From an uncultured Clostridia bacterium (GTDB lineage Bacteria > Bacillota > Clostridia > Christensenellales > Borkfalkiaceae): a stretch of 40,242 nt of DNA. The notes below the pieces were generated by a model. It ran no database searches and was not told the origin of the DNA. It saw only the letters and a list, made by a program, of their open reading frames with translations. The DNA is taken from NCBI GenBank assembly GCA_947629875.1, contig CANRFK010000001.1, positions 1 to 40,242 of the forward strand, read 5' to 3'. This document shows, piece after piece, positions 6,825 through 33,954 of the stretch. A program made the translations under genes and the position numbers. Positions within the stretch are counted from its first letter, which is position 1. The number at the start of each line of letters is the position of its first letter.

Positions 6825-6920
6825 TATAAGGCAAAGTCCCCCTCGACTGCGCTACTTTGTACGCCGCAATGCGTCGGGCGGGATGACATTATTATAGCGC
6901 GGGGCGGAGGCCTCGGCATG

Positions 6921-7101
6921 AGGACACCCCCTCACCCGCTACGCGGGAGCTCCCCCTCGAGGGGGAGCCAAGCCCCACCCCCCTACCCCCCCTCCCGGGA
7001 GGGGGAGAGTAACGGAGGCTCTCGAAGAGGGCAATATGGTGGGCGATTATGCACACCTCATCCGTCCGCCTGTGGCGGACACCTTCCCCTCGAGGGGAAG
7101 G
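6921..7101. repeat. cluster of REP-like GC-rich palindromic units
   Basis: Three consecutive units each end in a (c/t)cccctc..gagggg(a/g) palindrome: ctccccctcgagggggag, ccccctcccgggaggggg and ccttcccctcgaggggaagg. The last unit (7048-7101) shares the 17-mer tatgcacRcctcatccg and the cttcccct/aggggaag hairpin with 37743-37804. Confidence 0.55.
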
Positions 7102-7117
7102 GTGGGGGAAGCGTGCG

Positions 7118-7285
7118 GGTGGGTGGGTTTTGCACGGGTTTGGGACGGGTTTTGGGGTGGGTTTTGCACGGGTTTGGGACGGGTTTTGGATGGCTTTGGG
7201 ACGTCGTTTTGCACGGCTTTGGGGCGGGTTTTGGACGTCCTTGGGGACGTCGTTTTGCACGGCTTTGGGGCGGTTTTTGCGCGTT
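7118..7285 (+). repeat. degenerate GT-rich tandem repeat (two units of about 34 bp, then two of about 45 bp)
   Basis: The anchor ttttgcacgg recurs at 7128, 7162, 7207 and 7253, giving spacings of 34, 45 and 46. Many GGG runs are separated by 1-4 nt, for example gggtttgggacgggttttgggg, which occurs twice. Confidence 0.75.
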
Positions 7286-7401
7286 GCATCGAAAAAATAC
7301 GTATATATTTGGAAAAATGAATAAACCACAAAGAATTTTCATTTATTTTGGAATTTCTTTGAAATTTCACAGTATAAATTTATAAAATAACGTGAATTTG
7401 C

Positions 7402-7431
7402 TTGACATTTTCACGGGGGGGGGTGTATTAT
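7402..7431 (+). promoter_or_regulatory. candidate promoter of the 1003-aa/1714-aa lipoprotein genes, with a G9 tract in its spacer
   Basis: TTGACA 7402-7407, 18-nt spacer containing G9 (7415-7423), TATTAT 7426-7431. AT-rich upstream region. The ATG is at 7465. Confidence 0.45.
7415..7423 (+). repeat. poly-G (G9) homopolymer
   Basis: Counted directly: tcac-ggggggggg-tgtattat. Confidence 0.95.
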
Positions 7432-15813: not shown

Positions 15814-16096
15814 ATGGAAAAGAGGGGAGCGGGCCGAGGGGGGAGCCACCCGAGAAAGAGGCGGAAGATGATCTATCGGCAAAAACCAAGGAATGAGCCC
15901 GACGAAATCCCGAGCTCATTCGCAATTCGGCCGACGGGATCTTTGTCCGATTTTGGGAGATCTGTTTCGTCTGTGCGAGGGGATGGGTATTTACAAAAAT
16001 TCGTGTTCGAGTTGTTAAAATATTGACAAAATTTACACATAAACTTCAAAAAATGAACCAATTAAAAAATTTTTTGAAAAAATTTATCAAAACCTA

Positions 16097-16124
16097 TTGA
16101 CACGGCAATTTTTTATGATATAAT
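16097..16124 (+). promoter_or_regulatory. sigma70 promoter of the GH27 gene
   Basis: TTGACA 16097-16102, 16-nt spacer, TATAAT 16119-16124, with TG at 16116-16117 (extended -10). Confidence 0.6.
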
Positions 16125-17320: not shown

Positions 17321-17508
17321 GCTGTGCGCGTTGCGGGCGGGGGCTCACGTTCAACGAACTCGGTTTGAACGCAAAATACAACCCACAGGACAAAAAACTC
17401 TGCATCGGATGCCTTGCGGAGTGGTTGGATGTTCCGCGCGTGCGGCTGGAGGAGAAGATAAAGGAGTTTCTCCGCATCGGCTGCGCGATGTTTGCGGAAG
17501 AACATTGA
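17317..17508 (+). CDS. 63-aa Cys-rich (zinc-ribbon-like) protein, function unknown
   Basis: The ATGA overlap with the GH27 stop (ATG 17317-17319 / TGA 17318-17320) implies translational coupling. The sequence has CARCG...(22 residues)...CIGC plus a C-terminal Cys. Confidence 0.5.
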   Translation: MSCARCGRGLTFNELGLNAKYNPQDKKLCIGCLAEWLDVPRVRLEEKIKEFLRIGCAMFAEEH

Positions 17509-17579: not shown

Positions 17580-18557
17580 ATGGCAAGAGGAAGGGTCACG
17601 GTAAAGGATATCGCGCGGGAGGCGGGCGTCACGGCACAGACCGTATCGCGCGTGTTCCGCAATCAGGGATATCTTTCGGAGGACACCAAAAAGAAGGTGC
17701 TCGAAGCGGCGAAATTGCTCAACTACGTGCCCAACCAAACGGCGCGTTCGCTGCGCATCGGCAACGAGAAGAGCATCGCGGTGGTGTTCGACGGGCTCAG
17801 GAACGTCTATTTCTCGGTGATGATCGACTATCTCTACCGCGAGGCGAACCGCCTCGGGTACGCGCTCACCACGGTGTTCCGCGCCTATGAGCATGAGATC
17901 ACGGAAAAGGTGTATCTCGACGCACTTTCCCTGGGCGCGTCGGCGGTCGTCAGTTTCCTCGAGGCCTCGCCAGAACTCGGCGGGGCGGTGCGCAGGTACG
18001 GCGTGCCCGTGCTCGTTCTCGGGCGGCGCACGAACATCCCCGAGCTCGACTATGTGACGACGGACGATGAGAAGGGCGGCAGGCTCGCCGCGGAAAAACT
18101 CATCTCAAAGGGCTGCAAGAAATTCCTGTACGTTGCCGAAGGCATGGGCATGACGTGCGTGCAGGATCGCGGCAAGGGCTTTATCGACGCTCTCGCCGCG
18201 CACGGCCATTCGGCAAAGGTCATCGATATCAACGGCGGATTTGCAGAGCAGATCGCCGCTTTGGAGGCGGAGGGGTTCATCCCGGACGGCGTTTTCTGTT
18301 TTTCGGATATGATCGCCTTCTACGTGCTCACCAATCTGAAGGGCGAAAAGTACGCCTCCATGAAAGTCGTCGGCTACGATGATATCGGGGCGGAGGTACC
18401 GTTCCCGCTGCGGCTCACCTCCGTTGGCGTGGACAAGGCGGAATATACGCGCTATGCTCTGGGCAAGCTCGTGGCGAAGATCGAGAACGACGGGCACGAA
18501 GAACTGGCCATCCGCGAGCGGTACGATGTATTCCTTCATGAGGGAGAAACGGCGTAA
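17580..18557 (+). CDS. LacI/GalR-family transcriptional regulator
   Basis: N-terminal HTH VTVKDIAREAGVTAQTVSRVFRN...KVLEAAKLLNYVPNQTARSLR followed by a periplasmic-binding-protein-like sugar-sensor domain. AGGAG SD. Confidence 0.9.
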   Translation: MARGRVTVKDIAREAGVTAQTVSRVFRNQGYLSEDTKKKVLEAAKLLNYVPNQTARSLRIGNEKSIAVVFDGLRNVYFSVMIDYLYREANRLGYALTTVFRAYEHEITEKVYLDALSLGASAVVSFLEASPELGGAVRRYGVPVLVLGRRTNIPELDYVTTDDEKGGRLAAEKLISKGCKKFLYVAEGMGMTCVQDRGKGFIDALAAHGHSAKVIDINGGFAEQIAALEAEGFIPDGVFCFSDMIAFYVLTNLKGEKYASMKVVGYDDIGAEVPFPLRLTSVGVDKAEYTRYALGKLVAKIENDGHEELAIRERYDVFLHEGETA

Positions 18558-18595
18558 GCCGAGCTGATATAGGAAAATAAGGAGGAAAAAATAGG

Positions 18596-21500
18596 ATGAA
18601 AAAACGCAAGTTGTTGGTCGGGCTCTGTATGGCGGTAACGTTCATACTCTGCGGAGCATTTGTGGCGTGCGGCGGGAAAAAACCCGACACGGACGACGGG
18701 GGGGGGTCATCTTCAACAGCAGTTTGGGATCTCAAACTCGAAGGTGAAAAGACTCGCACGCTGGAGATCGACGAGGCGATCACCGACCCCGTTACCGACA
18801 CGCTCACGTGGACGGTGACGAAGGACGGCGAGACCGTTGCGACGGAGCCCGTTGCCGTGACGCTCTCGGGCACGTCGGTCACGTACGACGAGGCTTCCCA
18901 CACGGTGACCGCCGTCAAGGAAGGCAAGACGACGGTTACACTCACACTCACGGGACATACCGATGTGCTGCCCGTCAGCGTGACGTATGAAGTTGTAGAT
19001 TATTTCTTCTCCCGCGAAGTGCAGAGGGGCACGTTGAATTTCTCGGGAGAATCCACCGGGCAGGTTCGCATCATGGGCGGGCAGGCGACCCTCGTTGCCG
19101 AGCGCAAGGCGACGGCATGGGTCTTCCGCACGACGCTCTCTGCCGTCGATTACAACACGGGAGAGGCGTTCGGCGTCGGTTCTTTCCTCGATAACGGCGA
19201 CCACGCGCTGTGGTTCGGGATGCAGAACAAGGACAGCCAGCCCGACGGAAAGTTCAGCGTCTATTTGAGGGACTTCTATGCGGGCTGGGGCAGCGCCAAA
19301 TATGACGGCAATCCCGAAGGATACAGCAACCGCACATTCGATCTTACAAACGGCGTTGAATGCGAGATTATCCGCAACGGCGACAATTATTATTACACGA
19401 TCGGAACATATTACGGAACTTATACGGCGCAGGAGACTGCGGCGACTTACCCCGGCGTTTTTTCGCAGGAGAGAGTCGTCACGGTCTCCCATTTTTCCGT
19501 GTCTTACGATGAAAATGAGGTGAGCGAGGCGGCCGCAGCGTATGCGACAAAGGGCGTCGCTTCCGTCGTCATCAATGAGACGAGAGCGGTGCGCCTTCTC
19601 AAGGGTTCGACGCAGAAGTACACCGCGAACTGCTATCCCGCAGACAAGAGCGCGGGCGCGACGGTCGCTTGGTCGCTCGACAAGGAAGGCATGACCGCGG
19701 GACAGGAGGGCACCACCATCGATGCGGACGGCACGCTGCACCTTTCCGATGATGCGGCGGGGAAAGTGACCGTCGTATGCACGGCGGGCGACGCGAAGGA
19801 TACCCTCACCGTGACCATCATCGCAGCGTCCGAGGACAAGGAAAACAGTCAGCTCTCCGTGAAGGGCGGCGTCATTCTCGAGGACGACAGCGGCGACATC
19901 GTATTTCCCGACTACATGGCTTCGACGAACGGCGTCGGCAACGAACAGAGCTATGAGGATGCGGGCTACGGCGCCATTCTCAAACAAAAGGTGACGGGCA
20001 ACTTCTCCGTGGAGTTCACCGTCTCCGAATATGTCGCCTATGCGCAAAATCCCAAACTCATGATCTCGCTCGGCGCGGATCACAACCAGTTCTATGTCGT
20101 CTATACATCGGGCTACTGCCGCATCGAAACGTACACCCGTCATGTCTATGACAATGCGGTGCACGACAACGACTGGGTGAACAGCGGCAGTTTTGAAAAA
20201 TTCGATGCGAACGCTTCCCATACCTTCAAGATCGAAGTGCGCAACGGCATTTACAATGTGACGGTGGACGGAACCGCGCTCACCTTCACGCCGTTCAACG
20301 GCGGAAACGGCGGACCGGAATCCACCCTTGTGCGCAGTTACGAACACTGCGCTGCCGAACTTCCCATCCGCATTGCGACGAACGGCGTCTCGGCGCGCGT
20401 CAGCGACATCACCGTGACGCAGAATGAAAGGACGCTTCCCGAATACTTCCACTTCGGCAATGCGACGACGGTAGAAAACGGCATTGAGATGCAGTGCTAC
20501 GACGGCACTCCCGACAGCTTGGCTTGGGCGCAGGCGCGCACCCGCGTCATCCGCACGGCGGCAAACAGGACGGGCGATTGCAACCTCACGATGAACATCA
20601 CATTCAGCGCGGCGATGCACGACGGCAAGGCGATCGTCCTTCTCGGGAATACGCAGGAACTGCAATTCTGCAACAAGATCGCGGCAGGGCAGGGGATCGT
20701 CCTGCAACTCGTTGACGGACCCGCCTTCGGCAAAACGTACGCCGTGCCCTGCGAAGCGGGCGCGGGCGGCACCTACACCATTGCCCTCCGCATCGAGCGG
20801 AAGGGGAACGAAAACCGCATCATTGCGAACGGCGAGGAGATCTGCCGCACCGACTATGCGTTCGGCGAGCACCTGCAATTCTCCGTGTTCAATATGCGCA
20901 GCGACGAAAACTCCGTCACCGTGAAGTTCACCGATATTGTGTTCGGCGACTATGAGGAGACCAAGGTCTACACAGTTGAGGATCTCACCAAGGACGTCAC
21001 GCTCTCCGTCACAGGACAGCATGAAGTAACGTTCACGGTGCACTGCAACGGCACCCCCATACACGATGAGGACTACACCGTTGAAGTGACGACGGAGGAG
21101 AAGAACTTTATTTCCTACGACGAGGGCAGCAAGAAGGTCACGGCGCTTGCGGCGGGCGAGGAGACGCTTACGATCAACATCAAGGTGGACGATGAAGTCG
21201 TCTGTACGGCGACCGTCACGTTCCACATCACCGCACGCGAGACGGCGGACTCCAACGAGAATTGGCAGGTGAAGGGCGGCGTTGTGCTCTACACCGACGA
21301 TAATTCCATCGAATTCCCCGAAGCATACCAAAGCACGAACGGCGTCGGCGATGAATATAACTATGCGGACGCGGATTACTCCGCCAACTACAAGAAAACC
21401 GTCACGGGCGACTTCTCCATCGAGTTCACCGTGGAGAATTACAAATCGGTGGGCGACTATCCTAAACTCATGATCTCGCTCGGCGGTACGCACAACCAAT

Positions 21501-23779
21501 TCTACGTCGCCTACAACCGCTTGGGAACGATCAACCGCGTCGAGAGCTTCACCGAATCCGTTTCGGGCAACAGTTGGTACGTCGGCGGTTGGATCAACAG
21601 CGCGGAGTTTGCCTCTTTCGATGTAAACGCTTCCCATACTTACAAGATCGAAGTAAAGAACGGCGTGTACACTGTTTCGTTGGACGGCAAGCCGCTTACC
21701 TTCCACGAGGGCGAAAATCTCAACGACGTGCGCACGCCCGTGCGGAAGCTTGCCGATTACGCCACCGAACAGCCCATCCGTATCTCGACGAGCGGCGTCT
21801 CCTGCACAGTCCGCAACATTAAGGTTGAAACGACGCCGACGACCATTCCCGATTACTTCGGCTACGGCGATAAGGCGCAGCCGGAGGAGAACGGCGTTGC
21901 CATGGAGTTCACCACTGGCACTTGGGATCAGGCGCGCAACCGCGTTGTCCGCAAGGAGCCCATCCAAAAAGGCGACTTCACGCTCACGATGAACCTTGTG
22001 TTCAGCGCGGCGATGGAGGACGGCAAGGCGATCGTCAACCTCGGCGGAAGAAAGGAACTTCACTTCTGCAACAAGATCAAGTCGGGACAACTCTGTCTTG
22101 AACTTGTCAATCTCGGCGACGACTTTGAGAATATCACTTGGCCTGCGGTGGGTGACTACAATATTCCCTATGAGGCAGGCGAGGACGGCACCTACACCGT
22201 TGCGCTTCGCATCGAGCGGAGCGGGAACATCAACCGCATCATTGCGAACGGCGTAGAACTCTGCAAGCCCGATTACGAGATCGGCTCCTACCTTCGCTTC
22301 TCGATCTTCAACGAGAAGGGAGACGATGCCTCCGCTACCGTGAAGTTCACCGATATTACGTTCGGCGAATATGAAGAACTCGATATCTACACCATCGAAG
22401 AGCTCAACAGGAAGGTCACGATCTCCAAGGGAAAAGAGCAGGAACTTACCTATACGGTGTACCGCAACGGCACCCCCATCCATGACGGCTACACCGTTGA
22501 AGTGACGACGGAGGAGAAGGACTTTGTCTCCTACGCGGACGGCAAGATCAAGGCGGTCGCTGTCGGCGAAGAGAACGTGACGATCACAATCAAGGTGAAC
22601 GGCGACGTCGTCTGCACGGCGGTCGTTCAGGTCACCGTCAGCGAGCGTCCCACGGCGACGGAGAACAGCGATTGGACGGTGAAAGTCGGTGATAAAGGCG
22701 GAATTACGCTCTATACCGATGATAACTCCTTTGAGTTCACCACCACGGAGGACGGCGTCGTCAATGAGTTTGATTATGTGGAAGCGGATTACTCCGTCGA
22801 CTACAAACACAAAGTGATCGGCGACTTCTCCATTGAGTTTACCGTAAAGAACTATACGGCGAAAGAAAATTTCCCCAAACTCATGATCTCCCTCGGCGGC
22901 TCGAACAATCAGTTCTATGTGGTCTACAACCGCGAAGGACACGTCAACCGCATTGAGACGCTCACAAAGTCCGTCAACGCAAGCAAAGAGATGTTTTGGG
23001 ACGGTTCGTGGCTCAGTTCGGATGAATTCGCCGAATTTGATACCGCAGCAGACCATACTTACAAGATCGCGGTCGTGGAGGGGATATACCATATCTATCT
23101 CGACAATCAGGAATTGACGAAATTCCATTTGGATAACAGTCAGGATATGCGTACCCTCATCCGCCGCTATGAGGATTGGTCTACCGAACAACCCATCCGC
23201 ATTGCGACAAAGGGAGCCACCTGCACGGTAAGCGATATCAAGGTGACGAACGGCTCGATCGAGGACGTGACGAAGAACAAGTTCTTCTCCTTCACCAAGG
23301 GCGCGTCGAACCTCACCGAGGACGGCTTCACGATGGCATTTGAGGTTCATAGCTTTGATGCAAATGACAAGTGCCAAAACAAGGTGTTCTATACGGGAAC
23401 GTTGTCCGAAAATTTCACGTTGGAATACACGCTCAAATTCTCCGACGATATGACGGACTCCAAGTGGATGACGGTCATCGGCGGATATACGTTCGGTATT
23501 GAAAACAAAATCAAAGGCTCTGCGGCAAAATTGAATTTCATCCTGAATGGCGCAGGTGCCGATTGGGGCGATTGTCCGATCACCGTTGAAAAAACGGACA
23601 CTTATACCGTAAAAATCACTCGTGCAGACGGGCAGATGAAGTTCTTCGTCAACGATACGGAAGTGAAGAGCGCCGCCGCCAACAATGCCACTACACTCGC
23701 TTTTTGGACGTTCAACAGCAACGACTATGCAGGCGAGGCGGGCGTCACCGCGACCGTCTCCAACCTCACCATTTCGTAA
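18596..23779 (+). CDS. giant (1727 aa) surface lipoprotein with Ig-like (Big_2-like) domains and three tandem supermodules of about 470 aa each
   Basis: AGGAGG SD. Signal peptide with lipobox AFVAC. Big_2-like segments are present (for example KEGKTTVTLTL). The repeated blocks VKGG...TGNFSVEFTV...PKLMISLG...NQFYVVY...HTFKIEV.NG.Y.V..DG...PIRIAT.G recur three times. Confidence 0.8.
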   Translation: MKKRKLLVGLCMAVTFILCGAFVACGGKKPDTDDGGGSSSTAVWDLKLEGEKTRTLEIDEAITDPVTDTLTWTVTKDGETVATEPVAVTLSGTSVTYDEASHTVTAVKEGKTTVTLTLTGHTDVLPVSVTYEVVDYFFSREVQRGTLNFSGESTGQVRIMGGQATLVAERKATAWVFRTTLSAVDYNTGEAFGVGSFLDNGDHALWFGMQNKDSQPDGKFSVYLRDFYAGWGSAKYDGNPEGYSNRTFDLTNGVECEIIRNGDNYYYTIGTYYGTYTAQETAATYPGVFSQERVVTVSHFSVSYDENEVSEAAAAYATKGVASVVINETRAVRLLKGSTQKYTANCYPADKSAGATVAWSLDKEGMTAGQEGTTIDADGTLHLSDDAAGKVTVVCTAGDAKDTLTVTIIAASEDKENSQLSVKGGVILEDDSGDIVFPDYMASTNGVGNEQSYEDAGYGAILKQKVTGNFSVEFTVSEYVAYAQNPKLMISLGADHNQFYVVYTSGYCRIETYTRHVYDNAVHDNDWVNSGSFEKFDANASHTFKIEVRNGIYNVTVDGTALTFTPFNGGNGGPESTLVRSYEHCAAELPIRIATNGVSARVSDITVTQNERTLPEYFHFGNATTVENGIEMQCYDGTPDSLAWAQARTRVIRTAANRTGDCNLTMNITFSAAMHDGKAIVLLGNTQELQFCNKIAAGQGIVLQLVDGPAFGKTYAVPCEAGAGGTYTIALRIERKGNENRIIANGEEICRTDYAFGEHLQFSVFNMRSDENSVTVKFTDIVFGDYEETKVYTVEDLTKDVTLSVTGQHEVTFTVHCNGTPIHDEDYTVEVTTEEKNFISYDEGSKKVTALAAGEETLTINIKVDDEVVCTATVTFHITARETADSNENWQVKGGVVLYTDDNSIEFPEAYQSTNGVGDEYNYADADYSANYKKTVTGDFSIEFTVENYKSVGDYPKLMISLGGTHNQFYVAYNRLGTINRVESFTESVSGNSWYVGGWINSAEFASFDVNASHTYKIEVKNGVYTVSLDGKPLTFHEGENLNDVRTPVRKLADYATEQPIRISTSGVSCTVRNIKVETTPTTIPDYFGYGDKAQPEENGVAMEFTTGTWDQARNRVVRKEPIQKGDFTLTMNLVFSAAMEDGKAIVNLGGRKELHFCNKIKSGQLCLELVNLGDDFENITWPAVGDYNIPYEAGEDGTYTVALRIERSGNINRIIANGVELCKPDYEIGSYLRFSIFNEKGDDASATVKFTDITFGEYEELDIYTIEELNRKVTISKGKEQELTYTVYRNGTPIHDGYTVEVTTEEKDFVSYADGKIKAVAVGEENVTITIKVNGDVVCTAVVQVTVSERPTATENSDWTVKVGDKGGITLYTDDNSFEFTTTEDGVVNEFDYVEADYSVDYKHKVIGDFSIEFTVKNYTAKENFPKLMISLGGSNNQFYVVYNREGHVNRIETLTKSVNASKEMFWDGSWLSSDEFAEFDTAADHTYKIAVVEGIYHIYLDNQELTKFHLDNSQDMRTLIRRYEDWSTEQPIRIATKGATCTVSDIKVTNGSIEDVTKNKFFSFTKGASNLTEDGFTMAFEVHSFDANDKCQNKVFYTGTLSENFTLEYTLKFSDDMTDSKWMTVIGGYTFGIENKIKGSAAKLNFILNGAGADWGDCPITVEKTDTYTVKITRADGQMKFFVNDTEVKSAAANNATTLAFWTFNSNDYAGEAGVTATVSNLTIS
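18698..18706 (+). repeat. poly-G (G9) homopolymer in the 5' coding region (codons 35-37, GGG GGG GGG)
   Basis: Counted directly: gacgac-ggggggggg-tcatct, 10 codons after the lipobox Cys. Confidence 0.95.
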
Positions 23780-23800
23780 CGCATGGCAAACGGAGGTATC

Positions 23801-26101
23801 ATGAAAAAATTTATCAGCATTTTATGTTCGGTCGTGTTGGCGTGCGTGTTCCTCCTTGCGGGGTGCGGCGGGTCCGCCGCGCCCCCTGCGGGGACGCCGT
23901 CGCTCCGCCTGCGCAGTGAAAAAGAGCAGGCGCTCAAAGTGGGCGAGGGGATCACGCTCGTCTGGACGACAGCAAACACCGAGGAAGGCGTGACGTTCGC
24001 TTCCTCCGATAAAGCCGTCGTCACGGTGGATAACTACGGCTCGGTGGAAGCCGTCGGCACGGGCGAGGCGGATGTCACCATCACCCTCGTCGAGGATACG
24101 TCGGTCTCCGAGAAGGTGCATTTCACGGTCACGCGCAACTTCTTCATGCAGGAAAACGGCTATAAGAACGGCACCATCGATTTCACGAACGCCGAAACGG
24201 GCGGCACCGTCCTCATCAAGGACGGACAGGCGCAGCTCCTCGTCGAGCGTCCCGGGCAGGCGTGGTTCTTCAAGTGCCACTTGAAGCGCACGGGCTGCAC
24301 GAACGGCGATACATGGGGCAGATGGGGCGTGGGCTCCTTCCTCGTGAACGCGGGTACCCCCATCGGCGAAGTCATGCTGTGGGCGGGCTTCCAAAACAGG
24401 GATGAAAACGCAAATACATGCGTTCCCTACTACGGCGGCTGGCGCACGACGGGCAACGCGCAGGAGACGGAGGTCGAACTCACAACCTCTCCCATCGAGA
24501 TGGGCGGGGAAGCGGACGTCACCATCATCCGCCTCGGCACCAAACACTACGTCATCTTCGAGTGCGGCGACGAAGTTGTCAAGACGGTCGTCGACATCGA
24601 AAAATTTGCGGGCAAGGATACCTTCCCGGGCGTGTTCGGACAAAATCAGGTCATCGAAGTCTCAAATTACGACGCTTCCAACGAGGAAGACGAAGTGCTC
24701 GCCGCGCTCGATACCTTCCAGCTCGCCGAAGAAGTGGAAGTCAACGGGCTCGACAATCGCCTCATCGCGGGCAGAGAATACGACCTCACCGCGTCCGTCT
24801 ATCCCGCGGTCACCGTCAACAAAAACGTGACATGGGGTATGGAAACTGCGAAGGAGGGCGTCACGCTCACCCCCGCGGGACACCTCACCGTGGGCGCAAA
24901 TGTGCGCGGCGATATCACCGTGCGCGTCACGGCGCAGTCGGGCGAGAACGTCACAAAGACCCGCACCTTCACCGTCGTCGCCCCGCCGACCTCATCCTCG
25001 TCTCTCTTCGAGACGGAGATGTACATCGGCGAGAGCGGCAACATGACCGCAGAGGCGGCGGGTGCAACATTCACCGCGGGAGAGAATTACCTTCCCCTGA
25101 AAACGAGCGGGGAAACGTGGTACGTCTCGGCGACCGTACAGGGCGCAGAGCAGAAAGACGGCGTGCGCGCGGGATTTTTGAGCGCGGCGGCGGGCTATAC
25201 GAAGTACTTCCGCTACGGCATTGCGGGCAGTGGCGGCACGGCGCGCCATGCCGAATACGGCGACGGGTACGGGGAAACGTTCACCCTCAATTACGCCGCC
25301 AACGGCGATACGGCGCACGGCTTTATGGGCGCCAACACCATCGGGCTTCTGAAAGACGGCGCGTCTTACTATCTCTTCGCGAACGGCAAACTGATCGCCA
25401 AAAAAGAGGCAGCGTTTGCGGGTGAGACCTTCCTCGTCCTCTATGCGGAGGGATGCGGCGTGACCTTCTCCAACGTCACCGTCAAGACGGGCACAGAGGC
25501 GGCCGCAGAGCTCGAAAAGCATGCCTTCTATGTCGGCGGCTACGTCACCAAGACGGGGAACGTCTACAAGCTCGCAGGCGAGGACTTCGGCGAGGCGAAC
25601 AACATGAACTGGCCTCCCGATAACGACTACATGAACGGGCTCAAATTCGCCCAAGCGATCAAGGGCGACTACACCATAGAGTTCACCATGTCCGAGATAA
25701 AGCCCTACGGCAGCTCCTATGACGGAAAGGTGCTCGTCTATCTCAAGAGCGAACGGGTGACGGCCTCCATCCAATTCGTCATCAAGGGCAACAGTTCGTT
25801 CCCCACGGTCGCCCTCTGCACCAACCTCGACGACAATTCCTGGGACGAATACACGTTGCCCGCGGGCGTCGATCTGCTCAACGGCGAAACGCAGGTGAAG
25901 ATCGTCAAGAAGGCGGCGGGGGCGGAGCTCTGGCTCAACGGCACGCAGATAACTGCGGTCACGAAGAGCGGCGCCACGGTGGATGTGGACACGCTCCTGC
26001 GCAACAACGGGTATTGGAATGCGGACACCGCCTGCACGCCCGGCATTGGGTCGTTCAAGTGCGGCGTCACCATCACGAACCCCGTCATCACCCAATCATA
26101 A
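23801..26101 (+). CDS. surface lipoprotein (about 766 aa), paralogous to the N-terminal part of the 1727-aa protein
   Basis: GGAGG at 23792-23796 supports the ATG at 23801; the track ORF starts at 23783. Lipobox LLAGC. A Big_2-like domain (KVGEGITLVW...GTGEADVTITL) is followed by a module alignable by eye with the upstream protein (GQAQLLVERPGQAWFFK...WGVGSFL...GFQNRD versus GQATLVAERKATAWVFR...FGVGSFL...GMQNKD). Confidence 0.8.
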   Translation: MKKFISILCSVVLACVFLLAGCGGSAAPPAGTPSLRLRSEKEQALKVGEGITLVWTTANTEEGVTFASSDKAVVTVDNYGSVEAVGTGEADVTITLVEDTSVSEKVHFTVTRNFFMQENGYKNGTIDFTNAETGGTVLIKDGQAQLLVERPGQAWFFKCHLKRTGCTNGDTWGRWGVGSFLVNAGTPIGEVMLWAGFQNRDENANTCVPYYGGWRTTGNAQETEVELTTSPIEMGGEADVTIIRLGTKHYVIFECGDEVVKTVVDIEKFAGKDTFPGVFGQNQVIEVSNYDASNEEDEVLAALDTFQLAEEVEVNGLDNRLIAGREYDLTASVYPAVTVNKNVTWGMETAKEGVTLTPAGHLTVGANVRGDITVRVTAQSGENVTKTRTFTVVAPPTSSSSLFETEMYIGESGNMTAEAAGATFTAGENYLPLKTSGETWYVSATVQGAEQKDGVRAGFLSAAAGYTKYFRYGIAGSGGTARHAEYGDGYGETFTLNYAANGDTAHGFMGANTIGLLKDGASYYLFANGKLIAKKEAAFAGETFLVLYAEGCGVTFSNVTVKTGTEAAAELEKHAFYVGGYVTKTGNVYKLAGEDFGEANNMNWPPDNDYMNGLKFAQAIKGDYTIEFTMSEIKPYGSSYDGKVLVYLKSERVTASIQFVIKGNSSFPTVALCTNLDDNSWDEYTLPAGVDLLNGETQVKIVKKAAGAELWLNGTQITAVTKSGATVDVDTLLRNNGYWNADTACTPGIGSFKCGVTITNPVITQS

Positions 26102-26110
26102 GGAGGTAGC

Positions 26111-27820
26111 ATGAAAAGAATCGGAATTATCTGCCTTGCACTTGCGTGCGCGGCGGTCGGTGCGCTCGCCGGCTGTGGCAACGAAACGAACCCCGATCAT
26201 ACGGGCGGAAAGATAGAATACGAGACCTACGAAAGCTCCACCGTAAAGTTCACCGACAACGCGGCCGCGGGCGAATACAACACCGACCTGTGGTACCGCA
26301 ACGACCTCACGCGGGACATGGGAGACCCCATGGTCGTCTACGAGGACGGGTACTTCTACGCCTACGGCACGCGCGGCGGGCTCGGCTTCAACTGCTACCG
26401 TTCGGACGATCTCACCAACTGGGAGGATCTCGGCGTGGTATTTTCGGGGGCGAAGGCGGTCGGCTCGACGGAGACGAGCCTCTGGGCGCCCGACTTGCAG
26501 AAGATCGGCGACACGTGGTATCTGTACTACACCGTCAACATCAACTACCCCTCGGGCAACACCGAGCCGAGCTACTGCCAGATCGGCGTTGCGACGGGCG
26601 ACAGCCCCGCAGGCCCGTTTGCGCAGGTGTTCGATCCCTCCATCTCCGAGCAGACGCTCGCCAATACGCCCTTCAAGGACATGAAGGGGAGCACCATTCT
26701 CGACCAGAACGTTTTCGAGGACGATGGCGGCAAATTGTATATGTATTTCAGCTACGATTGCTCCAAGAACCCGTTCAAGTCCGAGCACTACGAGAACAAC
26801 GCGGAGATCTGGGGCGTGGAGTTGAAGAGCCCGACGGAGTGGGATATCTCCACGCTCACGCGCCTCATCCGCCCCGGCTACAAGAAGGTGGACGACGCCG
26901 TTCCCCTCATCCAGTGGGAGAATTGGTCTCCCTCGTTTGCAAACGGCTTTGAGTGCGCGGAGGGCCCGTACATGGTAAAGCACGGCGGGAAATATATTCT
27001 CACCTATTGCGCAAACAGCTTTGTGGATCTCGAATACGCCGTAGGATACGCCGTGGGGGATACCCCGTTCGGGCCCTTCGTAAAGCCCAACGACAGCTAT
27101 CTCCAAAATATGCTTCTCGGCGTGCCGGGCGAGGGCGGAACGTACGTCAGCAACCGCTATAAGGGGTTCATGACGGGCACGGGACACGCCTCCGTCGTGG
27201 ATGTGGAGGGCGAACTCATGTTTGCCTATCATGCGCATCAGGCGCGCGAATGGAACGCCGACATCGAACACGGCAATTGGCGCGCCCTTGCCTTCGACTA
27301 TCTGTACTTCGACGCGCAGGGGATGCCCTATACCAACGGCCCCACGTGGTCGCTCACGCGGCTTCCCGCCGCGGTCAGCGGGTACACAAATCTCGCGCCC
27401 TCGGCAACGGTGCGCGCCGACGGCGAGAATATCGCCTATCTCACCGATAATTTCACCAACCGCGCAATCAAGACGCAGGAAGTCGCGCGCGAGACGACCT
27501 TCAAAGCGGGCAGGCGGAGCATCGAACTCACGTTCGCAAGTCCCGTGCGCATCAAGGCGGTCGTCGTCTGCAATTCTTACGACTACGAGCTGCGCACCCA
27601 ACAGATCGCGCAGATCGACTTCGGAGAGCACAAGGGAATCGTCGGCGCGAACTTCAATTCCGCCTATCTGAAAACGGATGACGAGTTCATTTATCCGCAT
27701 TCTGCCTACAACGTGGAGCTTGAATCGGATATCATCACCGACCGCGTGGTCATCACCTTTGAAAGTGCGGTGGATTTTGCGGTCGGAGAAGTGGAAATCA
27801 TCGGGAGGACAATACAATGA
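26111..27820 (+). CDS. GH43-family glycoside hydrolase lipoprotein with a C-terminal beta-sandwich (discoidin/CBM-like) domain
   Basis: AGGAGG SD and lipobox ALAGC. GH43 blocks are GDPMVVYEDGYFYAYGT (base Asp), SLWAPDLQKIGDTWYLYY and ECAEGPYMVKHGGKYILTY (acid Glu). The subfamily cannot be determined by eye. Confidence 0.8.
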   Translation: MKRIGIICLALACAAVGALAGCGNETNPDHTGGKIEYETYESSTVKFTDNAAAGEYNTDLWYRNDLTRDMGDPMVVYEDGYFYAYGTRGGLGFNCYRSDDLTNWEDLGVVFSGAKAVGSTETSLWAPDLQKIGDTWYLYYTVNINYPSGNTEPSYCQIGVATGDSPAGPFAQVFDPSISEQTLANTPFKDMKGSTILDQNVFEDDGGKLYMYFSYDCSKNPFKSEHYENNAEIWGVELKSPTEWDISTLTRLIRPGYKKVDDAVPLIQWENWSPSFANGFECAEGPYMVKHGGKYILTYCANSFVDLEYAVGYAVGDTPFGPFVKPNDSYLQNMLLGVPGEGGTYVSNRYKGFMTGTGHASVVDVEGELMFAYHAHQAREWNADIEHGNWRALAFDYLYFDAQGMPYTNGPTWSLTRLPAAVSGYTNLAPSATVRADGENIAYLTDNFTNRAIKTQEVARETTFKAGRRSIELTFASPVRIKAVVVCNSYDYELRTQQIAQIDFGEHKGIVGANFNSAYLKTDDEFIYPHSAYNVELESDIITDRVVITFESAVDFAVGEVEIIGRTIQ

Positions 27821-29340
27821 AGAAAGGGAAGATCATCACAAAAATCATCGCCGTGGGGCTCGCCGCCGCGTTTACCGCAGGGATCGCGGCGGGCTGCGGG
27901 AGCGGCTCGAACAATGTGCAGGACGATCTCAAATTCGATGAGTTCGGCGACCCCGTCTTTGAGAACGTCGACCTCAAAGTTTGGTCGATCGTCGGCGACC
28001 CGGACGACGTGTATCTCGAAAAGGTCAACAAGATGTTCAACGACTATTACCGCGAGAACGGCTTGCAGGCGAAGATCACGCCCATCGTCAACGGCGACTT
28101 TTATCAGCAGGTCGCAAACACCATCACCACCGATCCCCGCAACGCGCCCGACGTCATTATCATTCACAGCGAGCGCCTCTCGGGGCTTGCGGCGAACAAC
28201 GTGATCGTGCCCATGTCCGAGTATTTTGAAGCGGCAAAGACGGAATTCGATCCCGATGCCTATCTCGATAACGTCATGGGCGAGTGCTATTACCAGAACA
28301 AGCTGTACGGCGTGCCGCTCGATGTGCACGCGGGCGTATGGTTCGTGCGTTCGGATATCCTCGAAAAGAACGGGCTCGAAAAGCCCACGACGCTCACGGA
28401 GTTCGTCGAAGTGTGCAACGCGCTCGTCGAGAAGTACGAAGCGGGCACCCTTTGGCACCGCGAGATGAACAAGACCAACGAGGCGGCGTGCGTGTGGACG
28501 CAGAGCAAGACGTTCGGCGACAACTACTATCCCGTCGTCATGAGCAAGGACGGCGGCATCGAGCAGGGCTGGATCCCGCAGACGGCGGTATTCCAGAACG
28601 GCGGAAAGCTGACCGACGAAAAGGGCTATCCCGCGTGGAACACGAAGGGGCTCGAGGACGTGATGACGATGTTCCGCAATTGGCAGACGGGGCAGGGCGA
28701 CTTCAAGGGAACGCCCTACAAGGGCGCATTCGTGAGCGGCAAGGATGACGTAAACACCGTCTGGTCCAAGCTCGCGAGCGGCGAAGCGGTATTCAGCTGC
28801 GAAGGCCCGTGGTGGATCGAACAGCGCCTGAATGAGTACGAAGATATTCTCGGGGATCTTCCGGACGATGGGAATAAGACGTACGCCCCCCTCGATATCA
28901 TGAATATGTCCAAGCTGTACGCGCTCGATGAGAACGCAGAGTACGCGGGAGAGATCTACGGCGTGGGGCACTGCTTCTCCATCTGCCGCACGGTGACGAG
29001 CAAGACGAAGCGCGTTGCCGCCGCGCTCTATGCGAAATTCATGACGGAAAACGCCGTCGATTACATGCAGGGCGGGCATCTTCCCGCATGCAAGGCGATC
29101 CTCGAATCGCAGCAGTACAAGGAAAAGCCCTTCTACGACCGCTATCTCAAAGAATTCGGCGACCCCGAAAACTTCGTGATGCTCGGCAATACGCCCCATT
29201 ACAGCGCCGTCTACGAGGGGTTGAAGAACGTCTATTCGGATATCTTCAATTCCAACTTCAAGGATCGCACGGTCGCCCAGATCATCAAGTCGCGCTACGA
29301 TTACGCGGTCAACTTCATCAAAGCGTCGGAGGGACTGTAA
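27817..29340 (+). CDS. ABC transporter extracellular solute-binding lipoprotein (sugar, CUT1 type)
   Basis: ATGA overlap with the GH43 stop. Lipobox IAAGC. Length and composition fit family-1 sugar-binding proteins, and it sits directly upstream of two MalF/MalG-type permeases. Confidence 0.8.
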   Translation: MKKGKIITKIIAVGLAAAFTAGIAAGCGSGSNNVQDDLKFDEFGDPVFENVDLKVWSIVGDPDDVYLEKVNKMFNDYYRENGLQAKITPIVNGDFYQQVANTITTDPRNAPDVIIIHSERLSGLAANNVIVPMSEYFEAAKTEFDPDAYLDNVMGECYYQNKLYGVPLDVHAGVWFVRSDILEKNGLEKPTTLTEFVEVCNALVEKYEAGTLWHREMNKTNEAACVWTQSKTFGDNYYPVVMSKDGGIEQGWIPQTAVFQNGGKLTDEKGYPAWNTKGLEDVMTMFRNWQTGQGDFKGTPYKGAFVSGKDDVNTVWSKLASGEAVFSCEGPWWIEQRLNEYEDILGDLPDDGNKTYAPLDIMNMSKLYALDENAEYAGEIYGVGHCFSICRTVTSKTKRVAAALYAKFMTENAVDYMQGGHLPACKAILESQQYKEKPFYDRYLKEFGDPENFVMLGNTPHYSAVYEGLKNVYSDIFNSNFKDRTVAQIIKSRYDYAVNFIKASEGL

Positions 29341-30396
29341 GTGGCTCGCATGACAACGGCAAGCGAATATGCGCTCAAACGGAGCAAGCGGAAGCAGTTC
29401 TTCAAGAATTACGGCATCGTTTTGCTGTTTCTCGGGCCGTTCATCTTCTTCTTCCTGCTCTTCTGCGTCTATCCGCTCTTTTACGGCATCGTGATGTCGC
29501 TGATGCGGTATAACATCGCCGATCCTTCGAAGAACGAGTGGAGGGGGTTCTCCTATTTTCAGACGCTCCTCTCCAACAGCAACAGCATTTACAACACCGA
29601 GTTTTGGTACTCGATGAAGAATACCGCGCTGTTTGCCGTCATTCTCGTGCCGCTTGCCATTCTCGTGCCGCTCGCCATTGCCGTTCTCGTGAACAGCAAG
29701 CCGCGCGGCTACAAAGTGTTCCGTGCGCTCATCTATTTCCCGTCCATTTTGCCCGTCTCGGCGAGCGGCGTCATCTTCATCTCGCTCTTCGGCACCAACT
29801 TCGGCTACATCAACCAATGGCTGGGACAGACGATCGGATGGCTCGATCAAACGACGACGGCGTGGTTCGTCATCATCCTGCTCTGTCTGTGGGGTGGATG
29901 GGGCGGCAACTTCATCATTTTGAGCGCAGGGCTCAAAAACGTCGATAAGAGCCTCTATGAGGCGGCGAGCGTGGACGGCTGCACGGGCATCCGCCGGATG
30001 TTCGCGGTGACGCTCCCCGCCATCAAGCCGCAGCTCATCGTCTGCCTCTTCACCACCATCATCGGCTATTTCGGGCTGTACGGGCAGGTCTACGTGCTCA
30101 CCAACGGCGGGCCCGCCAACCCCGATACCGGCGTCGGCACGACTGCCACCATCATGTGGTATCTGCAGTCGCTCATGAACTCCGGACAATACGATATTTA
30201 CGGCATGGTGAGTGCGATGGGGCTGACGCTCGGCGTGTTCATCGGCTGCATTACGGGGATCCAACTGTTTCTTACGCGTGAACGCAAGAGCGGCACCAAG
30301 CTCGCCCGCGCCTTTGCCGCATACAAGGCGGAAAAGGCGGAGAAGGCATCGGAGCCCGTGCCCGCCGTGCGGGAGGAGGCAAACGGAAATGAGTAA
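29341..30396 (+). CDS. sugar ABC transporter permease (MalF/UgpA-like)
   Basis: Multi-TM protein with the EAA-loop region (KSLYEAASVDGCTGIRRMFAVTLPAIKP). The GTG start at 29341 lies 7 nt after GGAGGG; an alternative ATG is at 29350. It has an unusual charged C-terminal tail. Confidence 0.85.
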   Translation: MARMTTASEYALKRSKRKQFFKNYGIVLLFLGPFIFFFLLFCVYPLFYGIVMSLMRYNIADPSKNEWRGFSYFQTLLSNSNSIYNTEFWYSMKNTALFAVILVPLAILVPLAIAVLVNSKPRGYKVFRALIYFPSILPVSASGVIFISLFGTNFGYINQWLGQTIGWLDQTTTAWFVIILLCLWGGWGGNFIILSAGLKNVDKSLYEAASVDGCTGIRRMFAVTLPAIKPQLIVCLFTTIIGYFGLYGQVYVLTNGGPANPDTGVGTTATIMWYLQSLMNSGQYDIYGMVSAMGLTLGVFIGCITGIQLFLTRERKSGTKLARAFAAYKAEKAEKASEPVPAVREEANGNE

Positions 30397-31372
30397 AGTT
30401 CTTCTCGCCGCCATTATCGTCGTCTGCACCGTCTGCTTCGCCATGGTCGTGCTCGATTTTGTCGTAGTGGGGTTGAAAAAACGCAAGGAACTCGGCGAAG
30501 GCAGGGTGGCGCGGTATCTCTCCAAAAACCTGTTCCGCCTCAACGCGTTCGTCTTTTTGCTCCTGTTCTGCATCGTATGGCTCGTGCCCATCGTCGTGGG
30601 CGTCATCGGCTCCTTTACGTCGCAGTACGCATTCGAGAACCACCCGGGCGAGCTCATCCCGTCGGACGGGTTTACCTTCGATAACTACATCGCCCTGTTC
30701 AGCAAGTACGATACGAACGGCGTGCGCCTTCCCGTGGAGCGCTGGATCCTCAACAGTTTCATCGTCTCTACGGTCACAACGGTGCTCTATCTCACCATCG
30801 CGGGGTTCGCGGCTTACGCCTTTGTATTTTTGCGCTTCCGCGGACAGAGGATCGTATTTTACGTGCTCATCTTCACGATGGTCATCCCGGGGGTCGCCAC
30901 CATGACGGCGCAGCTCGCAAACATGGCCAACCTCGGCATCTCAAAGTCGCTGTTTGCACTCATCCTGCCGAGCCTCGGCGGCGTGGGGGGACTGTACCTC
31001 ATCCGCCAGTTCTTTTTGGGCATCCCGCAGGACCTCATCGAATCGGCGCGCATCGACGGGTCGAGCAACCTCCGCATCTTCGTCAAAATCGTCTTACCGC
31101 TTGCGAAATCCGTCTTTCTCGTGCAGGGGCTGTTCTGCTTCATGGGCGCGTGGAACGATCTCCTGTGGCCGCAGGTCATCCTCGGCACGGCGGATAAGTC
31201 GCTCTGGACGTTGCAGGTCGGCATCGCGTACATCGCGGGCAGCAAGACGGCGAACAGCATCGGCATCAACCTCGCAAGCGCCATCGTGAGCGCCGTGCCC
31301 ATCCTCATTCTGTATATCTTTACGCAGAACAAGATCATCGAAGGCGTTGCCGCCACGGGCGTCAAACGTTGA
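30389..31372 (+). CDS. sugar ABC transporter permease (MalG/UgpE-like)
   Basis: The ATG at 30389 overlaps the upstream stop by 8 nt and has GGGAGGAGG upstream. EAA loop: DLIESARIDGSSNLRIFVKIVLPLAK. The R-rich N-terminal extension of the track ORF (from 30278) is rejected. Confidence 0.85.
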   Translation: MSKVLLAAIIVVCTVCFAMVVLDFVVVGLKKRKELGEGRVARYLSKNLFRLNAFVFLLLFCIVWLVPIVVGVIGSFTSQYAFENHPGELIPSDGFTFDNYIALFSKYDTNGVRLPVERWILNSFIVSTVTTVLYLTIAGFAAYAFVFLRFRGQRIVFYVLIFTMVIPGVATMTAQLANMANLGISKSLFALILPSLGGVGGLYLIRQFFLGIPQDLIESARIDGSSNLRIFVKIVLPLAKSVFLVQGLFCFMGAWNDLLWPQVILGTADKSLWTLQVGIAYIAGSKTANSIGINLASAIVSAVPILILYIFTQNKIIEGVAATGVKR

Positions 31373-31386
31373 ATTACGGAGCAGAC

Positions 31387-32931
31387 ATGGAAAAAAATAT
31401 CACATTGCAGGAAGCAAGAACCCAATACAAGGAAAACAAGGGAAGAGTCGTAGCGGAAGAGGCGGGCGGCTTTGTCGTGCTGCTACGGGACATCAACAAG
31501 ATTTACGATAACCACGTTCAGGCGGTCTACGATTTCAACCTGTCCATCGAACGGAACGAGTTCATCGTCCTCGTCGGACCCTCGGGCTGCGGCAAGTCGA
31601 CGACGCTCCGCATGATCGCGGGGCTCGAAGAGATCTCCTCGGGCTATCTCTACATCGACGGCGTGCTCGCCAACCACCTCGAAAGCAAGGATAGGGACAT
31701 TGCAATGGTATTCCAGAGCTACGCGCTCTATCCCAACATGACGGTGTACGACAACATCGGCTTCGGGCTTGCCGTCCGCCGTATTCCCAAGGAGGAGATC
31801 AGGCAAAAGGTGTTCGAGGCGGCGGAGATCCTCGACCTCGGCCCCTACCTCGACCGCAAGCCGCGCGAGCTCTCGGGCGGACAGATGCAGCGCGTCGCCC
31901 TCGGGCGGGCGATCGTAAGGAACGCCAAGCTCTTCCTCATGGACGAGCCGCTCTCCAACCTCGATGCCAAACTCCGCGTGCAGATGCGCAGTGAGATCGT
32001 CAAGCTGCACAAGCGCATCTCGGCGACCACCGTCTACGTCACGCACGACCAGACGGAGGCAATGACGATGGCGGACCGCATCGTCGTCATGAACAAGGGC
32101 TTCGTCCAGCAGATCGGAACGCCCTCGGAGATATACAGCGAGCCCGCCAACGTCTTTGTCGCCACCTTTATCGGCAGTCCTCCCATGAACGTGTTCCGCG
32201 CACAGATGCGCGACGGCGCGATTTGGGAAGGGGAGAGCGGCGTCACGCTGCCCGCCGGCACGGACGAGACGTTCGGCGCGTTTGTCGCCCAAAAGATCGC
32301 CTATTTCGGCGAACTCAAAGGGCGGTGCGAGGCGGCGATGAAGGAGGCGGTCTCGCAGGCGTGCGAGGCGTTCGGCGCATCCTCCAAGCGGACGGCGGCG
32401 CTCACCGCGGCATACGAAAGCGGCGAATGGCGCACCGTCATCCGTCTCCTCAAAAAGTACGCGGGCCCGCTCATGGAGGAGGAGCGCGCCGTCGCGGCGT
32501 CCCTGCAACAGGCAGGTTCCGCGGAGGCGTTCGTCAAAAAGGAGGAGGCAGCCGTTCCCGAGAAGAAGCGCAAGCGTAAAGAGGAGAAGCCCGATCTGCA
32601 CACCCAAAACATTGGGCGCATCGAGGCATACCTCAAAGCGTACGAGAGCGCGGCGGCCGAGCGCGAACTCTTCATCGGCATCCGCCCCGAGCACATTCAT
32701 CTCGCGGACGAATTCAAGGGAGCGGCGAGCGAGCCGTTCACCGCCGTCGCCGATTTCGTGGAACTGCTCGGCAGCGAACTGTGCGTCTACTTCAACGCGT
32801 TCGGCGGCCGCCTCATCTGCAAACTCTCCGCCGACCGCCTCATCCGCATGGGCGAGGAAGTGCGGCTCTGTTTCGATATGGAAAAGCTCAAACTGTTCGA
32901 CGGCGTGGGCGGAATGCGGATCGTGAAATAA
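31387..32931 (+). CDS. ABC transporter ATP-binding protein (MalK/MsmK/UgpC-like) with a large insertion in the C-terminal regulatory domain
   Basis: Walker A GPSGCGKST, Q-loop VFQSYALYP, signature LSGGQMQRV, Walker B LFLMDEPLS, H-loop VTHDQ. The FIGSPPMN ... IGIRPEHI regulatory-domain blocks are separated by roughly 135 extra residues. The ATG at 31387 with GGAG upstream is preferred over the track's TTG at 31369. Confidence 0.9.
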   Translation: MEKNITLQEARTQYKENKGRVVAEEAGGFVVLLRDINKIYDNHVQAVYDFNLSIERNEFIVLVGPSGCGKSTTLRMIAGLEEISSGYLYIDGVLANHLESKDRDIAMVFQSYALYPNMTVYDNIGFGLAVRRIPKEEIRQKVFEAAEILDLGPYLDRKPRELSGGQMQRVALGRAIVRNAKLFLMDEPLSNLDAKLRVQMRSEIVKLHKRISATTVYVTHDQTEAMTMADRIVVMNKGFVQQIGTPSEIYSEPANVFVATFIGSPPMNVFRAQMRDGAIWEGESGVTLPAGTDETFGAFVAQKIAYFGELKGRCEAAMKEAVSQACEAFGASSKRTAALTAAYESGEWRTVIRLLKKYAGPLMEEERAVAASLQQAGSAEAFVKKEEAAVPEKKRKRKEEKPDLHTQNIGRIEAYLKAYESAAAERELFIGIRPEHIHLADEFKGAASEPFTAVADFVELLGSELCVYFNAFGGRLICKLSADRLIRMGEEVRLCFDMEKLKLFDGVGGMRIVK

Positions 32932-32949
32932 TTTTTGTGAGGAACGGAT

Positions 32950-33954
32950 ATGAAGAAGATAAATCTGATTGCCGCGGTCGCCTTGAGCGCACTCTTTCTC
33001 TTTGCCGGGTGCGGCGAGGGGCCCGATCCCAACGGCGAAGACCCCGGTCACAACGGAGAGGATCCGCCCGTTCCCGAACAGGTGACCCTCGAGATTGCCG
33101 ACGTCATAGCTTGGATCGACTGCGCGCCCAGCGAGTTCGTTCCCGTGTGGTCGGATTCCGCGCAGGCGGAACCGCTCGAATATGAGTACGACGAAACGCT
33201 CGTCGAGCTCTCGCCCGAGGCGCACACCGTAAAGGCGCTCGCGGAAGGGCTCTGCGAAGTGCGGGCGTATTCGGAAAATTTCTCGGTGGAATTTACCGTG
33301 GATTGCAGGGAGATCGGTATGGATATAGAAGAAAAATGGCGCACCGACGTCACGGGGTGGCATCCCGATTGGCCCACCCGTCTCGAAAATTTCAAAGCGC
33401 TTTGGAAGATGAGCGGCACCCCGGATACGACGGTCTTTGCGGGCGACAGCTTTTTCGACGCGAGCGGGTTCTGGACGAATTTCTACGATACGTACAACGG
33501 GAAAGACGCGCTCTGCTTCGGCATCGGCTCCACGCACTCCTATAATTGGGAATATCTCGCCGATCATCTCCTCGCCGATATGACGCCGCGCAATCTCGTC
33601 ATGCACATCGGCACCAACAACGTCTACGATCAGGGTGACACCGCCGATATGGCAACGGAGGCGCTGCAACGCATGTTCACCGTTCTGCACGACCGCCTTC
33701 CCGATACCCAGATCTGGTGGTTTACGATCACCCAACGCAGTTACGATGAGATGAAGCAGTACGACGTCTCGCTCGTCAACAAGGCGATGATGGCATGGTG
33801 CAAGGACAGGAGTTGGATCACCTGCCTCGATACGTCGCCGCTCTTCACGGCGGATATGCTGAAAGACAGCATCCATCCCAAGCTCGAAGAATACCGCGTT
33901 TTTGTGGACGCATTAAACGCCGCCGGCATCGAGATCGCAGATAGTACCCGTTAA
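32950..33954 (+). CDS. SGNH/GDSL-family esterase lipoprotein (candidate carbohydrate acetylesterase)
   Basis: Lipobox LFAGC. SGNH blocks are FAGDSF (block I), GIGSTH (block II-like), HIGTNNV (block III) and DSIHP (block V). There is an Ig-like N-terminal segment. Confidence 0.75.
   Translation: MKKINLIAAVALSALFLFAGCGEGPDPNGEDPGHNGEDPPVPEQVTLEIADVIAWIDCAPSEFVPVWSDSAQAEPLEYEYDETLVELSPEAHTVKALAEGLCEVRAYSENFSVEFTVDCREIGMDIEEKWRTDVTGWHPDWPTRLENFKALWKMSGTPDTTVFAGDSFFDASGFWTNFYDTYNGKDALCFGIGSTHSYNWEYLADHLLADMTPRNLVMHIGTNNVYDQGDTADMATEALQRMFTVLHDRLPDTQIWWFTITQRSYDEMKQYDVSLVNKAMMAWCKDRSWITCLDTSPLFTADMLKDSIHPKLEEYRVFVDALNAAGIEIADSTR

Follow-up and report, generated by a model that had tools for sequence, protein, structure and literature searches.

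A G9 tract behind the lipobox of a giant lipoprotein gene in uncultured Clostridia: a probable slipped-strand ON/OFF switch

In Bifidobacterium breve UCC2003 a G tract stands, in each of the loci bbr_0113 and bbr_1889, between an open reading frame (ORF) that carries a Sec signal and the ORF of a giant pilin (PMC9187656). Both genes head their clusters, and in the OFF state polarity affects the genes downstream (Penno et al. 2022, PMC9187656). The predominant productive slippage event is the loss of one base, which restores the frame (PMC9187656). Here we describe a locus of an uncultured Clostridia bacterium in which a run of nine G residues (G9, positions 18698-18706) separates the secretion signal from the body of a giant lipoprotein. 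The locus lies in a stretch of 40,242 nucleotides (GenBank assembly GCA_947629875.1, contig CANRFK010000001.1, forward strand), the whole of which is called the window below. The G9 tract is probably a slipped-strand phase variation switch, that is, a simple-sequence-repeat (SSR) contingency switch, to judge from the sequences compared. The replication-slippage switch in the G tracts of the B. breve UCC2003 pilus genes is the closest known system.

The likeness to the B. breve system extends to several features. Both hosts are Gram-positive gut commensals, and in both the G tract splits the part encoding the secretion signal from the body of a giant surface protein, whose gene is the first of a tightly packed cluster. 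OFF alleles are annotated in the same manner, as a short upstream ORF followed by an N-terminally truncated long ORF, which has neither a Shine-Dalgarno sequence nor a signal peptide. Tracts equivalent to these are found throughout the genus, and G tracts located in promoter spacers, a candidate for which is described below, are mentioned for UCC2003. The B. breve host is an actinobacterium, whereas the window belongs to an uncultured Clostridia lineage. The B. breve cargo is an LPXTG pilin accompanied by a sortase; here it is a lipoprotein with lectin-like repeats in a putative sugar operon with LacI, GH43 and ATP-binding cassette (ABC) transporter genes. The reference allele is OFF in UCC2003 and ON in the window, and the Clostridia locus is known from assembled sequence alone.

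Neisseria pilC is a poly-G contingency gene. In the poly-G surface-protein genes of Neisseria, Haemophilus and Campylobacter, such as hmbR/hpuAB, the tract likewise lies in the 5′ coding or signal-peptide region and changes of +1 or -1 toggle translation ON and OFF; tract-length polymorphism among isolates serves as the standard genomic signature of such genes (PMC3786947). Systems of the Neisseria type belong to Gram-negative, host-restricted pathogens with measured switching rates, whereas the host considered here is a commensal of Gram-positive type; Campylobacter differs also in being without mismatch repair. A further parallel, and with it a general model of 5′ homopolymeric tracts, is inlA of Listeria monocytogenes, in which frameshift alleles of the 5′ poly(A) recur independently and the measured mutation frequency of the tract exceeds that of point mutations by a factor of ~1000 (Orsi et al. 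2010, PMC2831843). It also encodes a Firmicutes surface protein and has its homopolymer near the 5′ end. The inlA tract is, however, a poly(A) located right where the gene begins, whereas that of the Clostridia gene is a poly(G), follows the lipobox and has been conserved in several species.

The coordinates of the features are collected in Table 1. In the window the tract is bounded by C18697 and T18707. The lipobox TFILCGAFVAC fits a PROSITE-type pattern, and its cysteine (Cys25) is located ten codons 5′ of the tract. The lipoprotein gene was rebuilt in silico with 5 to 13 G's. The 1727-codon ORF was open at G6, G9 and G12, and only at these lengths did the signal peptide and the lipobox share the frame of the protein body. 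An earlier note on this DNA had placed the G9 in frame, ten codons behind the lipobox of an open ORF, and had read by hand a TGA within about 20 codons in the G10 frame and within about 40 codons in the G8 frame. All these factual statements were correct, the stops falling 13 and 37 codons after the tract, respectively. Gain or loss of one G truncates the lipoprotein product, which is the frame behavior of a contingency locus, and the position of the tract near the 5′ end of the coding region (codons 35-37 of 1727) is also that of a contingency locus.

Tract length was compared in related loci, using the consensus sequences of the assemblies. One locus (L001/L002), that of protein P0001, came from the metagenome-assembled genome (MAG) 'uncultured Clostridia bacterium Lapin-023 bin33' (GCA_947630035.1). 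Four more contigs (L006, L007, L008 and L012) were reached through the LacI gene by exact look-up, homolog search and cluster members; L008 had ~2x coverage. Pairwise nucleotide identities of 75-89% indicated four species-level lineages, and a G run was present at the homologous site in all four. Three of the five assemblies that cover the site (window, L007 and L012, all G9) were in frame, and two, L008 with G8 and L002 with G7, were out of frame.

P0001 is the closest ortholog of the lipoprotein (76% identical), and its locus is fully syntenic with the window. It is annotated as an N-truncated protein of 1652 aa, starting at the equivalent of residue 74. The DNA of L001/L002 nevertheless has, behind an ATG, the code for a signal peptide and a lipobox (FAAC), followed by AAT-GGGGGGG-TACA at the homologous site. 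Adding one G to L002 gave 1728 codons with the terminal stop only. The G7 is the sole run of seven or more G or C residues across the 18.9-kb locus. In L008 the frame of the lipoprotein ends after 48 codons. The gene caller chose an out-of-frame ATG, and the resulting N-terminus has no signal peptide; one added G opened 703 codons up to the contig end. Each OFF allele falls one G short of the length that is in frame in its lineage (G9 in the case of L008, G8 in that of L002), a single-base omission of the sort that predominates among the productive slippage events of B. breve (PMC9187656). ON and OFF length alleles of the tract exist in otherwise intact genes, as in contingency loci. The earlier note had suggested a survey of orthologs for tract-length polymorphism and for assemblies annotated as frameshifted, and both were found, the latter as the N-truncated call in L002 and the wrong-frame start in L008. 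Its proposal of an ON/OFF switch is supported by this survey and by the frame logic.

The L006 contig ends shortly before the tract. Taken as a possible sign of heterogeneity, this end was rejected as uninformative at ~2.6x coverage. The same contig has an 8-bp insertion, TTCTGAAA (L006:621-628, between window positions 16447 and 16448), which splits the alpha-galactosidase gene into ORFs of 87 and 281 aa.

Other searches were negative. Exact scans with the flanks of the tract and a variable gap gave no match in genome or metagenome contig collections, and a degenerate tract pattern gave none in viral contigs. The N-terminal 163 aa, used as a protein query for short OFF products or contig-end fragments, found no match. 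The search for related loci returned only the known close ortholog and distant homologs lacking G runs. By exact-protein look-up no counterpart was found for the giant lipoprotein, for the 1003-aa protein described below or for the amylase.

Table 1. Positions of the tract, of the lipoprotein gene and its surroundings, and of the tract in related loci
Feature	Sequence	Position	Strand	Remarks
G9 homopolymeric tract, proposed slippage-prone switch	window	18698..18706	+	codons 35-37, Gly-Gly-Gly (GGG GGG GGG)
ORF, 1727-aa lipoprotein	window	18596..23779	+	ATG at 18596
Shine-Dalgarno AAGGAGG	window	18579..18585	+	10 nt before ATG; conserved in L007, L008, L012
Signal peptide and lipobox (MKKRKLLVGLCMAVTFILCGAFVAC, Cys25)	window	18596..18670	+	PROSITE-type lipobox regex; conserved in 4/4 lineages
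TGA reached in G10 (+1) OFF state	window	18745..18747	+	codon 51, 13 codons past tract
TGA reached in G8 (-1) OFF state	window	18816..18818	+	codon 74, 37 codons past tract
Promoter, consensus-like	window	16097-16124		upstream of alpha-galactosidase gene
LacI-family regulator	window	17580..18557	+	38-nt gap to lipoprotein gene, no terminator-like site between
Downstream co-oriented gene string	window	23783..33954	+	gaps -4 to +18 nt
Other G9	window	7415..7423	+	in 18-nt spacer of TTGACA(7402-7407)-N18-TATTAT(7426-7431), consensus match only
Tract in L007	ERZ27249608	1791-1799		G9; in frame; 99.7% nt identity to window
Tract in L012	ERR14656722	6860-6868		G9; in frame, 902 open codons; 86% nt identity to window
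Tract in L008	ERZ27249358	1608-1615		G8; out of frame; 87% nt identity to window
L006	ERZ27249343			no tract; contig ends 13 nt short; 99.5% nt identity to window
Tract in L002/L001	GCA_947630035.1	L002:2668-2674		G7; out of frame; 81% nt identity to window

No part of the N-terminus varies more than the linker that contains the tract, in which there are substitutions and a 9-nt indel, and the G run is found in it in all lineages. The linkers of the four lineages read GGKKPDTDD-GGG-SSSTAV, GGGKEPNPDET-GGG-STTEV, GKKEPDPDD-GGG-SSSTEV and REDKPTPPNPDDN-GGG-TTTEV. The favored glycine codon in the window is GGC (0.60), followed by GGG (0.21), GGA (0.12) and GGT (0.07), and among the seven Gly-Gly-Gly tripeptides of the window the G9 tract alone is written wholly in GGG. 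In the first ~700 codons seven of the glycine columns that all four lineages share have GGG in the window. GGG was kept in all four lineages in the two columns of the tract versus none of the other five, a comparison of only seven columns; a Fisher calculation on these small numbers gave ~0.02-0.05. Codon use is thus suggestive, but not conclusive, of selection holding the tract against codon bias.

More distant proteins show that the homopolymer is not required by the protein. The syntenic homolog P0002 (L011, 39% identity) encodes GGGGG as GGC GGT GGC GGA GGC, and most other homologs have no glycine run longer than two at that site after the lipobox. A Gly3 linker demanded by the protein family was therefore rejected as an explanation, and the homopolymer is, among the sequences compared, specific to this clade. 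The earlier note had stated that orthologs encoding the same linker with mixed glycine codons would indicate chance. Such coding was found in the distant P0002/L011 and was not found in the close orthologs.

Chance was also considered at the level of the window. Besides the tract at 18698-18706, the + strand has just one run of seven or more G's, the G9 at 7415-7423. The census of run lengths in the window is bimodal (three G6, no G7, no G8, two G9 and one C7), which is suggestive. Dinucleotide-preserving shuffles contained, however, 0.64 G9/C9 matches per window on average, and 15 of 100 shuffles had at least two. That the window has only two G9 tracts was rightly noted earlier; the argument for selection drawn from their number did not hold, because this number is not significant by itself. 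The sole C run of at least seven (C7, 6986-6992) sits within a 200-aa ORF (6783-7385), for which neither a Pfam match nor an exact counterpart in sequence collections was found.

Several points weigh against a switch. As described above, the count of G9 tracts in the window is not significant against the shuffles. It is possible that the tract was kept through common descent alone, the window and L002 having a 4-fold-site identity of 0.69 and the codon test resting on 7 columns. L012 holds another, intergenic G9 with no evident function, which could mean that long G runs form rather readily in the clade. The OFF contig L008 has low coverage, and both OFF alleles are short by one base; single-base omission is the commonest direction of homopolymer sequencing error. 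G homopolymers are error-prone, and G-tract lengths in databases are unreliable (PMC9187656).

Taken together, such points could mean that the tract is a neutral relic, an inherited Gly-Gly-Gly in a gene that is always in frame, and that G8 and G7 are miscalls in low-coverage short-read metagenome assemblies. The ~2.2x coverage of L008, the caution of the B. breve study on database tract lengths (PMC9187656), the room that a 4-fold-site identity of 0.69 leaves for passive retention and the frequency of two G9 matches in shuffles are all in line with this explanation, which we nevertheless regard as quite unlikely. It needs two independent assemblies, from different projects, to be wrong at one and the same site, whereas all other genes in the 18.9-kb L002 locus are intact, and so are the complete genes of L008 (the 63-aa ORF and LacI). 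Moreover, G9 was read cleanly in three other assemblies, one of them at ~2x coverage, and the tract appears to be kept against codon bias within a variable linker. A different possibility is that the length changes are real and seldom revert. Phase variation is defined by reversible switching, within a clonal population, at 100-10,000 times the basal rate, and a recent review sets 'mutation-prone adaptive variation' apart from it, advising caution where rate and reversibility data are lacking (Bayliss et al. 2025, PMC11868660). A mutation-prone hotspot with largely one-way, recurrent loss of a dispensable gene, and with no frequent reversible switching, would agree with the finding of OFF alleles as consensus sequences in separate species. 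It is an unlikely explanation, as no second lesion was found over the 5.2 kb (L002) and 2.1 kb (L008) of OFF ORF, from which it follows that inactivation was recent or has been repeatedly reversed. The tract has been retained, not eroded, in 4/4 lineages. In addition, G runs of 8-9 are at the lengths that switch in established Neisseria and Campylobacter systems.

The intactness of the OFF alleles would also be expected if RNA polymerase slippage or ribosomal frameshifting produced some full-length protein from them, the tract setting the level of expression. Long homopolymers can indeed support transcriptional slippage. Programmed sites are, however, normally fixed out of frame in all orthologs, whereas three of the five assemblies are in frame here, and no stimulatory structure was identified. 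With the analogous out-of-frame alleles, B. breve formed no pili before the frame had been restored in the DNA (PMC9187656). We consider recoding very unlikely, and its programmed form was rejected because three of the five alleles are in frame at the DNA level and the frame disruption is thus not fixed.

The slipped-strand switch, which we prefer, would operate by mispairing during replication that adds or drops a G. Tract lengths of 3n (G9, G6, G12) would join the lipoprotein body to the frame of the signal peptide and lipobox. At other lengths translation would stop after 50 or 73 residues, and the protein would be neither made nor exported. Length changes may be frequent and reversible within populations; for reversibility the OFF ORFs free of lesions give an indirect hint. 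Through polarity, the OFF state would also mean weaker expression of the paralog, GH43 and ABC-transporter genes that follow. Such polarity is plausible, judging from the gene spacing and the B. breve precedent. As for the benefit, a large surface protein that is exposed may be bet-hedged in this way, for instance against phage or host antibody, or against what its expression costs.

Sequence searches against Pfam and the PDB found no domain in the giant lipoprotein. An AlphaFold model of residues 130-620 (window 18983-20455), built on 15 homologs, had a predicted local distance difference test score (pLDDT) of 89.9. In this model two beta-sandwiches of the concanavalin-A-like/LamG/galectin type flank an immunoglobulin (Ig)-like domain, and the best Foldseek matches in the PDB were BT3469, laminin LG domains, galectins and accessory beta-sandwiches of GH43 and GH32 enzymes. 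Across the full 1727 aa such beta-sandwich/Ig-like modules recur about three times. The protein belongs to a rare family, 18 matches having been found in 5.8 billion proteins. Because of the predicted fold and the sugar-operon context, the product is most likely a surface-anchored glycan-binding protein. Even under a strict definition it would count as a surface molecule, by virtue of the signal peptide with its lipobox and the predicted lectin-like/Ig-like folds of extracellular type.

The neighborhood fits a sugar-capture operon. Upstream of the lipoprotein gene there are, in this order, genes for an alpha-galactosidase, a 63-aa Cys-rich ORF and the LacI-family regulator. Downstream follow a 772-aa Big_2 paralog, a GH43 enzyme, a solute-binding protein, two permeases and two more ORFs. 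The counterpart in L001 of the first ORF past the permeases is an ABC ATPase. Between 15600 and 27900 none of the gene junctions showed a terminator-like site.

The 63-aa Cys-rich ORF (MSCARCGRGL...CIGC..., 17317-17508) overlaps the stop of the alpha-galactosidase gene by 4 nt. In every related locus that extends over this place, an ORF of 62-65 aa separates the alpha-galactosidase gene from LacI, with no precomputed Pfam hit on record for these ORFs in the related loci. In the more distantly related L009 and L010, whose LacI proteins are 78% and 70% identical, a GH2 glycosidase, and not a giant lipoprotein, follows the cassette of alpha-galactosidase, small ORF and LacI, and these two loci thus contributed no tract to the comparison. 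The same regulator cassette is accordingly found with different cargo.

The other G9 of the window lies in the spacer of TTGACA-N18-TATTAT, the strongest promoter-like site (11/12 matches), which is upstream of the genes for a 1003-aa Flg_new_2 surface protein and a 1714-aa BspA-LRR protein. A G8 at 7415-7423 would give the optimal spacer of 17 nt, and this tract is a candidate for a second, transcriptional switch (a volume switch). Promoter-spacer homopolymer switches are known from porA and opc. A poly-A tract acts as a switch in the promoter region of N. meningitidis nspA (PMC6389960). Switches of this kind resemble the G9 at 7415-7423 only; their mechanism is unlike that proposed for the tract at 18698-18706. 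A further G9 was seen in L012 (L012:4138-4146), in an intergenic position ~110 nt upstream of the alpha-galactosidase promoter; in the same place of the window (15979-15987) the run is interrupted, GGGGATGGG.

The promoter-spacer G9 is in keeping with the use of poly-G tracts as switches by this organism and, together with the intergenic G9 of L012, would suggest a wider poly-G 'phasome' in the clade. More tentatively, and with some doubt, one may propose that this Clostridia genus keeps a conserved 'core phasome', consisting of a translational switch at the head of a LacI-controlled glycan-capture operon, which would comprise the giant lectin-like lipoprotein, its paralog, GH43 and an ABC importer, and at least one transcriptional switch in a promoter spacer. 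If this were true, slippage and polarity would stochastically toggle a whole nutrient-acquisition apparatus, not one antigen. It would be a Gram-positive SSR counterpart of the invertase-driven phase variation of polysaccharide-utilization and capsule loci in Bacteroides.

The mapping of phase variation in gut commensals has dealt mainly with invertible DNA (Bacteroides, Clostridioides), and that of repeat-driven switches mainly with Gram-negative pathogens. The kind of switch proposed here is already known; what is new is the host, an uncultured Clostridia lineage, and the type of cargo, a giant, probably glycan-binding lipoprotein that heads a sugar operon. Gene callers render OFF alleles as N-truncated proteins without a signal, and the functional and surface-proteome inventories of MAGs are distorted as a consequence. 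A poly-G switch at this locus would carry the B. breve finding into another phylum, and it would suggest that slippage serves to bet-hedge nutrient-capture machinery, not only antigens.

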